The notes below the pieces were generated by a model. The model worked only from the letters and a program-made list of their open reading frames with translations, did no database searches and was not told where the DNA came from. From positions 1 through 27,960 of the forward strand of contig JAKAJF010000001.1 of the NCBI GenBank assembly GCA_021813875.1: 27,960 nucleotides of DNA, read 5' to 3'. Position 1 is the stretch's first letter. Each line of letters begins with the position of its first letter. Source of the DNA: a bacterium (GTDB lineage Bacteria; Patescibacteriota; Patescibacteriia; Patescibacteriales; JAKAJF01). Made by a program: the position numbers and the translations under genes. This document shows, in pieces, positions 25,263 through 27,707 of the stretch.

Positions 25263-25393
25263 GTTATAAACATAACAAAAAGTTAATAATTTGTAAATTT
25301 CTTAAATAAATTTTACTAATATTAGCTACTGAGATAAATTAAAATTATAATCGAACTTTTGGAATAAAATTAAAAGGAAAGGAGGCGATAAAG

Positions 25394-25576
25394 ATGCCTG
25401 GAAGCAACGTCGGATTTAATTCTGGCTGGGATGGAGATGATTCTTATCCGTCCGGCGAGACGAGCGTCGAAGAGCCGAGGCTTTTCGACGTCATCGAGGC
25501 ACCGGTCAGGGCTGCGGCTAATTTAGTCAGCCATATTCTGCCGGCCGACGGGGATGATGGCCCCAGGGGCGGGTAA
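25394..25576 (+). CDS. 60-aa acidic small protein
   Basis: Strong SD (GAAAGGAGG), TATAAT at 25346-25351 and its own terminator; DGDD occurs twice; ends in RGG. Confidence 0.65.
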   Translation: MPGSNVGFNSGWDGDDSYPSGETSVEEPRLFDVIEAPVRAAANLVSHILPADGDDGPRGG

Positions 25577-25580
25577 ACGA

Positions 25581-25610
25581 AAGGACAGTTTAAAAAACTG
25601 TCCTTCTTTT
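25581..25610. terminator. Hairpin terminator (also the first hairpin of the tRNA-fragment array)
   Basis: Perfect 11-bp aaggacagttt-aaa-aaactgtcctt, followed by ctttt. Confidence 0.75.
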
Positions 25611-25615
25611 GTTCT

Positions 25616-25777
25616 TGCGGAGAGGCAGGGATTTCCGCGCTCGCTCGGCGGCCGAATTCCGCCTCGTTCACTTGTCCAGGGTCAGCGCGAACGTGCCCCC
25701 AGCACGTCCGCGATCGCTCGATAATTCGCCTCGGCTTCCGCCTCGGCTCATATCTCACTTCTGCTCGTTCGAATCCC
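25616..25777 (-). repeat. tRNA-Ser 3'-fragment unit 1 with structured insert
   Basis: Minus strand: GGGATTCGAACGAGCAGAAGTGAGA-[114 nt]-GCGGAAATCCCTGCCTCTCCGCA. The end equals T-stem 3' strand, acceptor 3' strand, G discriminator and CA, as in tRNA-Ser. No tRNA 5' half is present. Confidence 0.8.
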
Positions 25778-25789
25778 AGCACTCATTAT

Positions 25790-25829
25790 GCAAAATAAAA
25801 GCAGGCGTGAGGCCTGCTTTTATTTTTGA
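25790..25829. terminator. 40-nt hairpin spacer of the array
   Basis: Perfect 15-bp stem aaaataaaagcaggc/gcctgcttttatttt. Confidence 0.75.
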
Positions 25830-26002
25830 TGCGGAGAGGCAGGGATTTCCGCTTCACTTTCCCCCGCATCGAGTGCGGGGTCAGTTCGTTACCCTGTGCA
25901 GCGCCAAGCCCTGCGCCAGCTCGGGCTTGAGCGACGCTCGCCTGTGTTTCTCGCCGGCAGAAACGGCCCGAAACTTGTCTCGCTTCTGCCCGTTCGAATC
26001 CC
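25830..26002 (-). repeat. tRNA-Ser 3'-fragment unit 2 with structured insert
   Basis: Identical 23-nt tgcggagaggcagggatttccgc and a 25-nt tctcRcttctgcYcgttcgaatccc (2 mismatches to unit 1), with a different 125-nt interior. Confidence 0.8.
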
Positions 26003-26014
26003 TTTCCACTTTTC

Positions 26015-26054
26015 GCAAAATAAAATTCCCCCAAGAATGGGGGAATTTTATTCT
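26015..26054. terminator. 40-nt hairpin spacer of the array
   Basis: Perfect 15-bp stem aataaaattccccca/tgggggaattttatt; same gcaaaataaaa flank and length as the previous hairpin but a different GC core. Confidence 0.75.
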
Positions 26055-26082
26055 TGCGGAGAGTGGTCAACGGTATCCGAAC
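26055..26082 (-). other. att-like junction (third tRNA-Ser 3'-end core, 9 nt)
   Basis: The tgcggagag core recurs, then the sequence diverges and base composition turns AT-rich. Confidence 0.6.
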
Positions 26083-26585
26083 TGCTTAGTAGTCTTTATT
26101 GCTGTAACATTTTCTTTCAAGGCCAGTTCCGCGATAGAATCTACATGGCCATAACCACAAATCAGAAGAGTTGTCTTATCTCCCTTTTCTTTAATTTTAT
26201 TCAGCCAAAATTTCTCTCTTTTTATATCTGATTCTTTAGCGATTTTATTAATTTCGATTTCTTGTTCGGTTGTTAATGGAAAAGAAAAGCCTAAATTTCT
26301 TGCAATATCTTCTCGTTGTTGAAGCCCTAATTTATTTCTCTCATCAAATCCAGGGTCGCAAAGCAAATATTCTATTCTAAAAGTGGAAATAATTTTTCTT
26401 GCATGAGTATTATTTATCTCCCAGTGGCACAAAGCATCTTCACTAATTTCTTCGGCAACTAATTGAATTTTCTTCTCTTGAATGATTTTTTTTAGATAGC
26501 TTAAATACTTATCAACTTCAACCAGATCATTATCTTTATGTGGGAATTGAACTTTAAAATGAGCAACCCCTAAAATATATATCAT
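26067..26585 (-). CDS. Hypothetical protein, TraB/PrgY/GumN (Tiki/ChaN/EreA) superfamily-like
   Basis: ILGVAH, LVAEE, RE..W...I and LLICGYGHV correspond to the H, E, R and H core motifs. Confidence 0.6.
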   Translation of the reverse strand: MIYILGVAHFKVQFPHKDNDLVEVDKYLSYLKKIIQEKKIQLVAEEISEDALCHWEINNTHARKIISTFRIEYLLCDPGFDERNKLGLQQREDIARNLGFSFPLTTEQEIEINKIAKESDIKREKFWLNKIKEKGDKTTLLICGYGHVDSIAELALKENVTAIKTTKQFGYR

Positions 26586-27152
26586 TTATTTCTTATTTTG
26601 TGTTGCCCATCTATCAACTATCTTTTTCATCCATTCTAATAGCCCTACGTGGAGTCTGTTCAATATAGGCAAAAGTTCTCCTATTTGATTAGAAAATTCT
26701 TCACTACCGCACACCTCTTGTTCGGCCACAAATGCAACATATGCATCGAGTGGATCTATCTTAATTTTATAAAAATCCTCAAGTGAAGATAGAAATGTAT
26801 CTTCATCCTTAAGACGATCTCGTTCATAAAGATCATTAGTTAGTGCAAAAAAATTTTTTGCTCTTTCAGGCAAGAATGACAGGCTTTTAAGCAAAATATT
26901 TTCGCCAAAAAGCTGGCCTATTATTTGGCCCTCAGGAGTGAAACTAAGATAAAAAAGATGAGCTCCAATAAGACAATGTATAAGCTCTGACCTTGCTTCA
27001 TCGTTCTTCAAAATATCCGACCATCCTGTTTTAACCTCTGCCTGTAATTCACCCACTAGCTCCGCAGAACGAATGGCTGCCCATATAGGAAATTCACTAA
27101 GAAAAATATCCTCGTCCTTGTCGGTTGGTTTTGTTTTTGAAAACCACGTCAT
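26586..27152 (-). CDS. Hypothetical protein
   Basis: 188-aa AT-rich ORF whose stop directly abuts the next ATG. Confidence 0.7.
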   Translation of the reverse strand: MTWFSKTKPTDKDEDIFLSEFPIWAAIRSAELVGELQAEVKTGWSDILKNDEARSELIHCLIGAHLFYLSFTPEGQIIGQLFGENILLKSLSFLPERAKNFFALTNDLYERDRLKDEDTFLSSLEDFYKIKIDPLDAYVAFVAEQEVCGSEEFSNQIGELLPILNRLHVGLLEWMKKIVDRWATQNKK

Positions 27153-27220
27153 AAGTGTATTTTAAATTATAATTATAACGTATAATAAAATTAGCAAAAA
27201 ATCAAGATAAGTTACCCACT

Positions 27221-27249
27221 TTGACGCCCCTCCGCACTTTTGCTACACT
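27221..27249 (+). promoter_or_regulatory. Sigma70-type promoter
   Basis: TTGACG-N17-TACACT with an extended TGn. Confidence 0.7.
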
Positions 27250-27255
27250 AATAAT

Positions 27256-27360
27256 GTTTCCGTGAATAAAATATTACAAGCAGACGGAATCAGATCAACG
27301 AAGCTCGCGTCTAGGGATATTAACTATCGCGCCCTTAATTCAAGGGGGCGTTTTGTGTTT
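27256..27360 (+). ncRNA. Candidate sRNA or attenuator leader of about 105 nt
   Basis: ORF-free; 5' stem ttccgt/acggaa; ends in a cgcgccctt/aagggggcg hairpin plus ttttgtgtttt. Confidence 0.45.
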
Positions 27361-27500
27361 TATGGCCCTGTTGCCTTTTAAAAATTTTCAATTTGGGGGT
27401 AAATAATTGCGATTCTTTGGATTCCGATTGCGTAGAAAATACAACACTGCAAGAGAAATTCTATATGCTCGAACTGCACAAAGCACCTTTAAATACAAAA

Positions 27501-27562
27501 CAAAACGAGGCTTTGGCCTCGCTTTGTCGCGAACTGCGGTGGCGATGTCCGGAAGTTTGAAC
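27501..27562 (-). other. Fourth hairpin plus tRNA-end-like att junction
   Basis: Hairpin caaaacgaggc/gcctcgctttg, then tgcggtggcg. Minus strand G-TTCAAAC-N15-CCGCA has the same spacing as the junction at 26055. Confidence 0.45.
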
Positions 27563-27707
27563 CGGTATTCGCCTTAAAGGCCTTATCTTATGGCCGTATT
27601 GATAAAATTATACGCCGTTTGAGGTTATTTTACAAGGAAAATCCAGCCTCTTTTGAGGTTCCTGTCTTTGCTCAAAAGGTCTACTAATTGATATTTGCTT
27701 AATTTAG

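Follow-up and report, generated by a model that had tools for sequence, protein, structure and literature searches.

What the tandem repeats at this locus are, and how the end of a tRNA-Ser gene came to be part of them, is the question we address here. The window, meaning the whole stretch of 27,960 nucleotides that was analyzed, had been read in an initial annotation as holding three copies of a gene-less module built on the tRNA T-loop. Direct checking of the sequence bore out every sequence feature described there, each at its position. The core repeat CTCTCCGCA is present three times, at 25616, 25830, and 26055 (periods of 214 and 225), but the full modules number two, and the copy at 26055 is a relic.

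Two modules at a former tRNA-Ser site

Both full modules lie on the minus strand, at 25616 to 25777 and 25830 to 26002, and a terminator follows each. The features are as follows.

25777 to 25753 and 26002 to 25978, minus strand: 5' block, GGGATTCGAACG[A/G]GCAGAAG[T/C]GAGA, read from the sequence.
25638 to 25616 and 25852 to 25830, minus strand: 3' block, GCGGAAATCCCTGCCTCTCCGCA, read from the sequence.
25576 to 25615, minus strand: terminator 1, a bidirectional hairpin and T-run (12-bp hairpin in the fold; terminator scan, 25581 to 25605).
25616 to 25634, minus strand: direct repeat (DR) 1, a copy of tRNA-Ser positions 58 to 76 (AAATCCCTGCCTCTCCGCA), identical to the 3' end of tRNA-Ser(CGA) of the relative G019.
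25635 to 25766, minus strand: core of module 1, subfamily B, with helices P1 to P4 and purine-rich joining strands (match to covariance model R1 at 25628 to 25777, 114.4 bits).
25767 to 25777, minus strand: arm 1, GGGATTCGAAC, the reverse complement of tRNA positions 53 to 63 (T-loop and start of the 3' T-stem strand).
25778 to 25829, minus strand: 52-nt linker with terminator 2 and a short spacer before arm 1 (perfect hairpin of ~15 bp in the fold, roughly 25793 to 25827).
25830 to 25848, minus strand: DR 2, the same tRNA-Ser 58 to 76 copy as DR 1, read from the sequence.
25849 to 25991, minus strand: core of module 2, subfamily A (R1 match at 25842 to 26002, 109.9 bits).
25992 to 26002, minus strand: arm 2, GGGATTCGAAC, read from the sequence.
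26003 to 26054, minus strand: 52-nt linker with terminator 3 and a spacer (hairpin core at 26027 to 26045; terminator scan, both strands).
26055 to 26082, minus strand: tRNA-Ser 3'-end relic, with CTCTCCGCA at 26055 to 26063 and a degenerate T-loop-like GTTCGGAT before it, overlapping the end of ORF 26067 to 26585.

Between the 5' and 3' blocks lie inserts of 114 nt and 125 nt, and each CCGCA is separated from the next GGGATTC by 52 nt of hairpin and spacer. The closing helix of both modules is GGGATT/AATCCC and reaches up to 12 bp in copies elsewhere. Terminator 1 closes module 1 and also a converging 60-aa ORF of the plus strand (25394 to 25576). At the other end, the 9-nt relic at 26055 to 26063 and its terminator directly follow the stop codon of ORF 26067 to 26585, with no full module there; G005 shows a like arrangement of ORF, CACTCTCCGCA, terminator, and module. 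AT-rich cargo of about 1.5 kb adjoins the array, between the former tRNA-Ser(CGA) site and wherever the tRNA is, and it gave no tblastx matches to other loci.

The cores of the two modules belong to different subfamilies. The closest copy to the core of module 1 lies behind tRNA-Trp on contig C7 of the same genome (78% identity), and the core of module 2 has relatives in the same genome, behind tRNA-Gly(GCC) and tRNA-Gly(TCC), and in G011, behind tRNA-Glu. The 3' block had been assigned to the end of a tRNA, and it equals that of tRNA-Ser(CGA) in G019. An intact tRNA-Ser gene to the right had also been predicted, and this is not borne out: ARAGORN found no tRNA within the window, and neither a tRNA-Ser gene nor an overlapping contig was found in the 77%-complete assembly. 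We conclude that the window holds two different subfamilies stacked at one former tRNA-Ser(CGA) site. An Rfam search of the window gave no family match (tmRNA, ribozymes, and RtT included), the ORFs overlapping the modules had no Pfam match, and no integrase was found in the window. The window modules score 114 and 110 bits with the family covariance model and fold more stably than shuffled sequences (z of -2.9 and -3.6), and therefore they are not chance.

A family behind tRNA and tmRNA genes

The initial annotation had proposed a gene-less family tied to tRNA genes, and a census supports it. When covariance model R1 was run over 151 genomes of the same order, 42 contained matches, with 1 to 14 copies each, a distribution that was patchy by family, and tandem arrays, some of them made of identical units. 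Among 94 fetched copies, 55 lie 44 to 69 nt (median, 57) downstream of the end of a tRNA or tmRNA gene on the same strand, and 11 more belong to arrays that follow a gene of this kind. The genes used cover at least 12 tRNA species plus tmRNA, and the same architecture is present in closed or near-closed genomes, G122, G131, and G147 among them. An exact-flank scan of metagenome contigs gave 0 matches. A degenerate core pattern searched in genome contigs gave mostly chance matches in GC-rich genomes, and R1 confirmed CPR-type records only. We conclude that the repeats belong to a family of noncoding modules of ~150 nt that stand behind tRNA and tmRNA genes in Moranbacteria-like Patescibacteria. 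Small palindromes occur alongside the modules.

The arm follows the local tRNA

How a module relates to its tRNA is seen at its two ends. The 5' arm is the reverse complement of positions 53 to 63 of the neighboring tRNA, sometimes running on to position 69, and the 3' end, the DR, repeats positions 58 to 76. The arm had been predicted to change with tRNA identity, and it does: the match is perfect at 11 of 11 positions in 45 of 55 copies and has one mismatch in the other 10, and ten T-loop variants are tracked. With shuffled tRNA partners the match averages 9.75 of 11, and the observed value was reached in 0 of 10,000 shuffles; because the compared genomes are related, this statistic, like those of the fold below, covers kin and overstates independence. 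The paralogous tRNA-Gly loci on contigs C4 and C79 have T-loops with TTCG and TCCG, respectively, and their arms differ to match.

The inner boundaries of both ends are sharp. The base after the arm pairs with tRNA position 52 in 1 of 54 copies, and the base before the DR equals tRNA position 57 in 3 of 33. The DR is perfect over positions 58 to 73 in 32 of 55 copies and decayed in the others, and mismatches affect 1.7% of sites in the arm and 13% in the DR. Moreover, in all 11 copies that have lost the DR, the arm is perfect. The fit of the arm to the local tRNA persists even when the DR decays.

The core folds on one strand

The core contains covarying helices, and the folding strand is the tRNA-sense strand. 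In an alignment fitted to the structure of the model, P1 and P2 are 94.5% paired, compared to 69% in shuffles and 25 to 41% for slid partners, and cells with two-sided changes number 404 versus 119, a value that 0 of 500 shuffles reached. The P3 hairpin forms in 81 distinct sequences. Of the two strands, the sense strand gives the more stable fold in 77 of 77 modules, stems contain 32 G.T pairs versus 8 A.C pairs, and GGAA loops of the GNRA type are present. We conclude that the modules share a four-helix core in which the tRNA-sense strand is under selection to fold.

The repeats might instead be scars of excised prophages or islands, left over as attL and attR, or they might be an assembly artifact or a chance repeat. 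An island classically leaves a tRNA 3' end in direct repeat as its scar, and the cargo beside the array would suit an island. A scar, an artifact, or chance, however, would not give a conserved, covarying core in 42 genomes, two different subfamilies among the modules of one window, or the same plan in G122, G131, and G147. The breadth of the family, the tracking of the tRNA by the arm, and the covariation of the helices contradict these explanations, and we give them hardly any credence.

Modules are gained, lost, and exchanged

Whether the modules stay in place can be judged by comparing sites. Close cores are found at different tRNA species and in different genera. Where cores are 92 to 95% identical, the identity starts exactly at the arm, and no common sequence lies upstream of the arm or downstream of the repeat; neither the proximal nor the distal terminator goes along with the core. 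Since such cores share nothing upstream, there is no visible sign that the unit brings a tRNA 3' end and terminator of its own. When modules whose cores are at least 85% identical were paired, 8 of 10 informative arm sites showed each arm agreeing with the tRNA beside it. G039 and G093 have an identical tRNA, terminator, and arm and different cores.

Copy number had been expected to vary, and it varies between congeners, with orthologous sites empty or filled. At tRNA-Lys, three congeners have 1, 3, and 5 copies. The tRNA-Ala(TGC) site of one genus is empty in 7 of 12 genomes and filled in 5 of 12 by three unrelated cores, all on the same plan. At the tmRNA site, G019 has two modules where G000 has a 49-nt gap. 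We conclude that modules have been gained, lost, tandemly multiplied, and exchanged between tRNA species and between genera, and that the travelling unit is the arm and core, with the DR and without the surrounding terminators. Presence and absence within a genus could reflect loss by deletion between repeats rather than gain, and matched arms beside similar cores could reflect gene conversion of cores between resident modules rather than retargeted insertion, for which the differing cores of G039 and G093 in identical surroundings are an example. That the two terminators, proximal and distal, are reverse complements of each other, as a product of hairpin replication, was considered and rejected by eye.

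Alternatively, the modules might be host small-RNA genes of the tRNA operon that are not mobile, with loss and duplication giving the patchiness. Escherichia coli offers precedents in RrA/B/F and in the RNA of the tRNA-linked repeats (TLR), or RtT RNA (Rfam RF00391; Egan and Landy 1978; Stenum et al. 2021, PMC8144298). The RNA would arise from read-through of the tRNA terminator, and the repeat and arm would provide a tRNA-like 3' end for processing. Covarying helices, GGAA loops, folding of the sense strand, and a terminator for each unit all agree with such a gene, and E. coli TLRs that lie between two terminators are made by read-through and processed (PMC8144298). Immobile genes, however, fit poorly with patchy occupancy even within a genus, with three unrelated cores at one site, with near-identical cores at different tRNAs and in different genera, with arrays of identical units, and with decay of the repeat. 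Moreover, no promoter-like (sigma-70-type) site was found in a scan of 25300 to 26300, and inspection of 86 upstream regions by eye revealed no fixed -10 box. A role as a CsrA sponge, like that of E. coli RrB, was rejected, as 5 genomes lacked a CsrA gene. We consider host small-RNA genes an unlikely explanation.

Search for a partner enzyme

Mobile modules that encode no protein would need an enzyme from elsewhere. No transposase, reverse transcriptase, IS110, TnpB, or small GIY-YIG gene consistently co-occurs with the modules. The DEDD recombinase of IS110 was found in 0 of 5 module-bearing genomes. A Y1 (HUH) transposase reached the family cutoff in 1 of 5 module-rich genomes, with a second, weak match below the cutoff, and was absent from G000, G131, and G143; a TnpB-type nuclease gave no match over the cutoff in G000, G093, G131, and G143. 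G143, which is 99% complete and has 14 copies, lacks genes for Y1 transposase, IS110, TnpB, reverse transcriptase, and small GIY-YIG proteins.

Perhaps, the modules are passengers of a homing nuclease, such that a small GIY-YIG enzyme cuts empty tRNA genes and repair copies in the DNA between the tRNA and a spare 3' end. Small GIY-YIG genes are abundant at tRNA ends in the genome of the window, G000, which has seven such ORFs. Three of them begin at the final bases of a tRNA (Tyr, Ala, and Met), and behind the ones at tRNA-Tyr and tRNA-Ala at least 31 nt of the 3' part of the tRNA is repeated. In G120, one small GIY-YIG ORF lies ~350 nt upstream of a module. G143, however, has a single GIY-YIG match for its 14 modules, and since that match sits in an open frame of 398 aa, the genome has no small GIY-YIG. 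The cassettes themselves contain neither arm nor core, and the arm would be left unexplained. Passage with a homing nuclease is thus very unlikely.

A second candidate is suggested by a Xer-like tyrosine recombinase of 320 to 330 aa, the only class of enzyme sought that is always present, in 5 of 5 module-rich genomes tested. The modules could be miniature integrative elements that recombine as folded single strands, as do the attP of CTX phage and the attC of integrons. The arm and repeat would fold into a partial copy of the T-arm duplex, and the recombinase, acting in trans, would exchange one pair of strands in the T-loop. Integration of the CTX type would leave exactly what is seen, namely, part of the target copied in inverted orientation ~135 nt from the junction and a DR that starts sharply at position 58, and the folding is specific to one strand. 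The recombinase itself is uninformative, however, because its class is near universal. Moreover, an element of the integrase type should bring its own tRNA 3' end and terminator, whereas cores that are 92 to 95% identical have nothing in common upstream of the arm. At least 12 tRNA species and tmRNA are used, and a fixed attP would break the tRNA at noncognate sites. Finally, GTTCGAA does not fit the integron core GTTRRRY. We regard fold-back integration as unlikely.

A model for the modules

We favor a mobile, noncoding, tRNA-linked module whose arm would base pair with the T-loop, and we see in it the equivalent, in CPR bacteria, of the E. coli tRNA-linked repeats (RtT RNA); this reading is somewhat more likely than not. 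Counting against it are the missing promoter-like site, the lack of an enzyme gene linked to the modules, and the absence of a tRNA gene from the window. A module would consist, in order, of the T-loop-antisense arm, the four-helix core, the DR of tRNA positions 58 to 76, and a terminator. The arm may base pair with the T-loop region, either of the tRNA gene or of a read-through transcript, and may bridge the 57|58 junction, at which the repeat starts, as a guide or splint. Such pairing would tie the module to tRNA genes and set its position. The active form would be the folded sense strand, either RNA made by read-through of the tRNA terminator or single-stranded DNA. No dedicated enzyme gene accompanies the modules, and movement might depend on a host activity in trans, either a Xer-like recombinase or recombination and repair.

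We speculate further that the arm is a programmable guide. A folded RNA or single strand without a protein would use ~11 to 17 nt of T-loop pairing to steer a host enzyme, which would insert the module, or keep it, at 57|58 of any tRNA or tmRNA gene, and the matched arm and repeat would be remade at each new site. The E. coli tRNA-linked repeats would then be decayed members of the same very old class. This extension is tentative, and the odds are against it. If the arm does set the site by pairing, the result would be a minimal, gene-less, retargetable insertion module that runs on host functions in genomes smaller than 1 Mb. Such a module would also offer a starting point for understanding the E. 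coli repeats, which have been without explanation since 1978 and one of which is present in standard cloning vectors as the spacer of rrnB T1-T2. Modules, GIY-YIG cassettes, and small palindromes together account for much of the unannotated GC-rich DNA beside tRNA genes in the genome bins of CPR bacteria, and for much of the contig breakage there.

Comparison with known systems

Several known systems resemble the modules in part. Elements that tyrosine integrases insert at tRNA genes, and the CIMEs, derivatives of such elements that have no genes, likewise are flanked by a repeat of the tRNA 3' end that starts in the T-loop, leave the tRNA intact, and can stack at one tRNA. The modules differ in having no integrase gene inside or nearby, in being a unit of only ~150 nt, in travelling without a replacement tRNA end, and in using many tRNA species with closely related cores. 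In integron attC and CTX-phage attP(+), imperfect inverted repeats likewise close a structured 100 to 150 nt, structure is conserved above sequence, and one strand folds. Modules, however, lack an integron integrase and a dif-like or GTTRRRY core, and their arms copy the target tRNA rather than a fixed site.

A target-complementary segment beside a conserved fold is also found in the bridge RNA of IS110, in IS200/IS605 guides and PATEs, in REP/RAYT, and in the exon-binding sites of group II introns, and some of these guide-bearing RNAs and DNAs are nonautonomous and multicopy. Their partner enzymes, however, are missing from module-rich genomes, and the modules have no homology to the Rfam models. 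Homing-endonuclease cassettes insert at the 3' end of a gene and duplicate that end. At Allomyces atp6, Paquin et al. reportedly described such a GIY-YIG cassette, bringing a spare gene end, in 1994. GIY-YIG cassettes with a spare gene end are present at three tRNA genes of the genome of the window. Phage T4 SegB, within a tRNA cluster, is an example of a free-standing cassette (PMC2330249). What sets the modules apart from these cassettes is the antisense arm and the lack of any encoded protein.

Of the known systems, the tRNA-linked repeat of E. coli comes closest, and the modules share its architecture. Thus, the suggestion that such a family had never been described was too strong. The two differ in that no sequence or profile homology is detectable: RF00391 did not match the window at the gathering score or at E values up to 10, and model R1 did not match the E. 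coli tyrT repeats. Moreover, the CPR arm spans the whole T-loop to G53 and tracks the variant of each tRNA, every CPR unit has its own strong terminator, and the CPR family extends over many tRNA species, tmRNA, and genera, with unrelated cores and with sites empty or filled. The likenesses nevertheless run through the entire plan. Both immediately follow a tRNA or rRNA gene and share its strand, and in both the terminal 18 to 19 nt reproduce exactly the 3' end of the gene upstream, from T-loop position 58. An outer helix is formed where the repeat pairs with an inverted copy of the 3' part of the tRNA; in the Rfam consensus of RtT it is GGGGAAGGAU/AUCCUUCCCC, with tRNA-Tyr 59 to 68 as the inverted stretch. 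At E. coli rrnB, the order is T1, repeat, and T2, and the repeat contains GGATTTGAAC, an antisense T-loop. At E. coli tyrT, DNA that resists exonuclease under stress has been reported (bioRxiv 10.1101/2024.07.17.603846). Within the outer helix lies a branched, purine-rich core, and both form tandem arrays, with units of 178 bp repeated 3.14 times at E. coli tyrT and of 208 to 225 bp in the CPR modules.

The array in the window

The modules at issue each consist of an arm (the reverse complement of tRNA positions 53-63), a core predicted to fold into helices P1 to P4, and a 3' repeat of tRNA positions 58-76. The window carries the following features.

25616-25777, minus strand: module 1, complete by sequence inspection
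25777-25767, minus strand: arm of module 1, GGGATTCGAAC
25634-25616, minus strand: terminus of the 3' block of module 1, ...AAATCCCTGCCTCTCCGCA
25830-26002, minus strand: module 2, complete
26055-26063, minus strand: relic "core", CTCTCCGCA and a terminator only, directly behind the stop codon that ends ORF 26067-26585

The initial annotation gave insert lengths of 114 and 125 nt with periods of 214 and 225, and the sequence bears these out; the annotation's third core is not a full module but the relic at 26055-26063, and the complete modules number two. A long perfect hairpin and a T-run follow each of the two, and the distance from ...CCGCA to the next arm is exactly 52 nt each time. Modules 1 and 2 are each more stably folded than shuffled sequences. 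Overall similarity between them is about 77%, falling well below that in mid-module, and they belong to two different subfamilies. The array stretch is 55-60% G+C and its flanks are AT rich. Mechanical ORFs spanning the array region had no Pfam match, and an Rfam search of the window returned no match, either at the gathering score or at E values up to 10. No tRNA gene was found across the window. The array is the mark of a former tRNA-Ser(CGA) end; the intact tRNA-Ser that had been predicted was sought on the contig and in the 77%-complete assembly and was not found.

The roughly 1.5 kb upstream of the array is AT rich (26064-27535; 30-40% G+C versus 51% for the genome) and contains two ORFs, which are 172 and 188 amino acids long. 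Neither ORF had a Pfam match, and the segment had no tblastx match among all fetched loci. Both of its edges are T-loop-like, ...CCGCA-plus-terminator junctions, which gives the segment the look of a cassette inserted into the tRNA-Ser site. Next to it, at 27535-27640 on the minus strand, a promoter-like TTGTAA-N17-TATAAT precedes some 60 nt of sequence that may form a tRNA-like minihelix, with an acceptor-like stem GGCGAT...ATCGCC and an arm CCGG-TTCAAACTT-CCGG, and that terminates in ACCGCA and a terminator. ARAGORN called no tRNA there.

A module family behind tRNA and tmRNA genes

The modules constitute a real, multicopy, noncoding family that is associated with tRNA and tmRNA genes and folds strand-specifically. 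When the window's own assembly and 40 relatives were searched at the DNA level, more copies turned up. Those in that assembly lie behind tRNA-Gly(GCC) (contig C4), tRNA-Gly(TCC) (C79), and tRNA-Trp (C7/C85); those in the relatives follow tmRNA or the tRNAs for Glu, Gln, Lys, Ser, Leu, and Trp. The search of CPR genomes for similar modules that the initial annotation proposed was productive: R1, a covariance model of the family, detected it, patchily by family and at 1 to 14 copies per genome, in 42 of 151 genomes from the order. Outside the order, only 3 of 150 genomes in a phylum-wide sample were positive. Tandem arrays occur, as in genome G093, with four perfect 208-bp units.

R1-confirmed records are titled Candidatus Moranbacteria, Kerfeldbacteria, Paceibacterota, or "Patescibacteria group," and some Gammaproteobacteria or Bdellovibrionales. 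True modules are present in loci L164, L165, L174, L179, L192, and L202 (titled Gammaproteobacteria) and in L146, L152, and L212 (titled Bdellovibrionales). L179 is a contig of a genome, G029, that is placed in the window's own order, and therefore those NCBI titles look like mislabeled CPR bins.

The arm matches the neighboring tRNA

How the arm relates to its neighbor was read from 94 copies fetched with their 5' ends and up to 300 nt of upstream sequence for tRNA detection. A tRNA or tmRNA on the same strand ended 44 to 69 nt upstream (median, 57) in 55 copies; 11 lay further down tandem arrays, and 28 had no tRNA in the sequence fetched, owing to contig ends, cargo, or undetected genes. 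Reverse-complemented, the arm matched tRNA positions 53-63 perfectly in 45 of the 55 and with one mismatch in the other 10. That arms change with tRNA identity, as had been suggested, is borne out: they track ten T-loop variants (e.g., GTCCGATTCCC, GTTCGAGTCCC, GTTCAAGTCCC, and GTCCAATTCCC, with GTTCAATTCCC for tmRNA), and the mean match of 10.82 out of 11, versus 9.75 with shuffled partners, was reached in 0 of 10,000 shuffles. The match often extends into tRNA-specific stem bases, up to 17 nt. The two tRNA-Gly loci of the window's genome are about 88% identical throughout and have T-loops TTCG and TCCG, and their arms differ to match, at a position outside the reach of the module's own 3' repeat.

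The inner edges are sharp. Just past the arm, the next base is able to pair with position 52 in 1 of 54 copies; just ahead of the repeat, the base is the same as position 57 in 3 of 33. The outer arm edge is ragged. Over positions 58-73 the repeat was perfect in 32 of 55 copies, carried one to four mismatches in 12, and was lost in 11, and all 11 of the last had a perfect arm. Mismatches per site were 13% for the repeat versus 1.7% for the arm. Because the repeat decays while the arm stays matched, the arm is under constraint, and its partner is probably the tRNA gene or transcript rather than the module's own repeat.

The core as a folded strand

P1 and P2 were paired at 94.5% over 90 distinct sequences, compared to 69% with shuffled partners and 25-41% with slid partners. 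Two-sided changes filled 404 cells versus 119 expected, a count reached in 0 of 500 shuffles. The alignment behind these pair counts was fitted to the model, which favors pairing, but the evidence from the slid controls and from pair types such as GGCAG/CTGCC, GTTGG/CCAAC, and GTCAG/CTGAC is clear all the same. Across 81 distinct sequences, P3 folds as a hairpin (mean minimum free energy, -15.8 versus -7.4 kcal/mol for shuffles), and the P4 loop is usually GGAA. In all 77 modules compared, the sense strand folded more stably than the antisense strand, and the stems hold 32 G.T pairs versus 8 A.C pairs. These results indicate that the core folds as one strand, the one with tRNA-sense polarity.

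Probable mobility or exchange

In a tree of 84 cores, genomes and tRNA species are intermixed. Cores a few percent apart occur downstream of tRNA-Gly, tRNA-Glu, and Glu relics across three genera of two families, and other close cores sit behind Ser, Gln, and Trp. For core pairs at least 85% identical behind different tRNAs, 8 of 10 informative arm positions fit the module's own tRNA. Near-identical copies are identical from the arm exactly to the repeat, with unrelated terminators and spacers on either side. An integrase acting by fold-back, the mechanism first proposed, is possible but fits poorly with a traveling unit that lacks a tRNA 3' end.

Occupancy and copy number vary among close relatives. 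Behind tRNA-Ala(TGC) in 12 genomes of one genus, there is only a terminator in 7, R1-type modules in 1, and, in 4, two other unrelated cores of the same arm-core-repeat plan (one of the 4 genomes has a remnant only). Copy number variation between relatives, which the initial annotation had raised, is seen at tRNA-Lys, with 1, 3, and 5 units in three congeners, and behind tmRNA there are two units in G019 versus a 49-nt gap in the window's genome. We conclude that modules probably move or are exchanged. Deletion from repeat to repeat can also empty a site, however. Genomes G039 and G093 are identical in tRNA, terminator, spacer, and arm but differ in core, so some of the pattern could reflect gene conversion in which resident modules exchange cores.

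Loci L124 (1578-1810), L128, and L129 have two unrelated GC-rich cores of this plan about 100 to 300 nt downstream of tRNA-Ala(TGC), in the order antisense T-arm, core, tRNA 3'-end repeat, and terminator; one of the two has shifted inner edges, with the arm from position 54 and the repeat from position 56. A 20-nt perfect palindrome, CCTGCCTGCCGGCAGGCAGG, is inserted at differing places in otherwise near-identical modules (inside modules in L046 and L053, and at the end of the G093 array in L096), as a very small mobile hairpin would be. A palindromic terminator-like repeat of about 35 to 65 nt, found between tRNA-Arg and tRNA-Met of G093 (L027, 2021-2087), has dozens of matches on both strands across all four genomes of the genus.

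Enzymes sought

Among five module-rich genomes, a Y1 transposase reached the family cutoff in one, with one weak match below it; TnpB exceeded the cutoff in one, reverse transcriptase was found in three, and IS110 was found in none. G143, with 14 copies and 99% completeness, lacked all four and had two tyrosine recombinases and one GIY-YIG match in a 398-amino-acid open frame. Xer-like recombinases of 320 to 330 amino acids were present in all four near-complete genomes, as expected of any bacterium, and the window's genome (77% complete) had a tyrosine recombinase only as a partial match in a 255-amino-acid open frame. CsrA was absent from the genomes searched. Thus, no enzyme of the families searched appears to accompany the modules in module-rich genomes.

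The 775-kb assembly of the window has seven small GIY-YIG ORFs of about 80 to 110 amino acids, three of which begin at the final bases of tRNA-Tyr, tRNA-Ala, and tRNA-Met (C7, 2400-2900; C57, 1700-2180; C52, 1040-1560). At tRNA-Tyr and tRNA-Ala, a second copy of the tRNA 3' part, at least 31 nt, follows. These resemble cassettes of the homing type that supply or duplicate the end of a gene. In G120 (L025, 700-1400), upstream of an intact tRNA-Glu and its module, a GIY-YIG ORF lies between repeated copies of the tRNA-Glu 5' half, each with a 30-nt insert in the anticodon loop.

The target-matched arm is constrained, and occupancy and copy number vary between close relatives. We lean towards a nonautonomous element of the tRNA-linked-repeat kind, one that moves or recombines. 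The arm would pair with the T-loop region and would therefore fix the module to tRNA genes, the active form would be the folded sense strand, and the engine would be a host function. The main rival is a purely host small-RNA role, which is compatible with mobility.

Resemblance to the E. coli tRNA-linked repeats

The closest known counterparts of the modules are the tRNA-linked repeats of E. coli, of which 22 have been described at ten loci. [quoted passage not shown] A preprint describes an exonuclease-resistant DNA signal in the tyrT/rttR region that is raised under stress and unexplained (10.1101/2024.07.17.603846), which we take as a lead only. Homology to the modules was not detectable in either direction (the Rfam RtT model against the window, and R1 against the E. 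coli repeats).

The tyrT repeat starts at T-loop position 58, exactly as in the modules, and its unit holds GGGGAAGGAT, the reverse complement of tRNA-Tyr 59-68. In the RtT model (RF00391), this antisense/repeat pair is the outer helix around a branched core. The rrnB repeat of E. coli K-12 (L251, 205-315) lies between T1 and T2 and has an antisense T-loop, GGATTTGAAC, that pairs with a nearby CAAATCC; the terminal 18 nt of the spacer are the last 18 nt of 5S rRNA. This T1-T2 spacer is present in many cloning vectors. Because the tyrT, RF00391, and rrnB features agree, the modules and the E. coli repeats share an architecture: a stable-RNA gene, a terminator, an inverted arm, a branched purine-rich core, a repeat from position 58, and a terminator, with tandem arrays in both.
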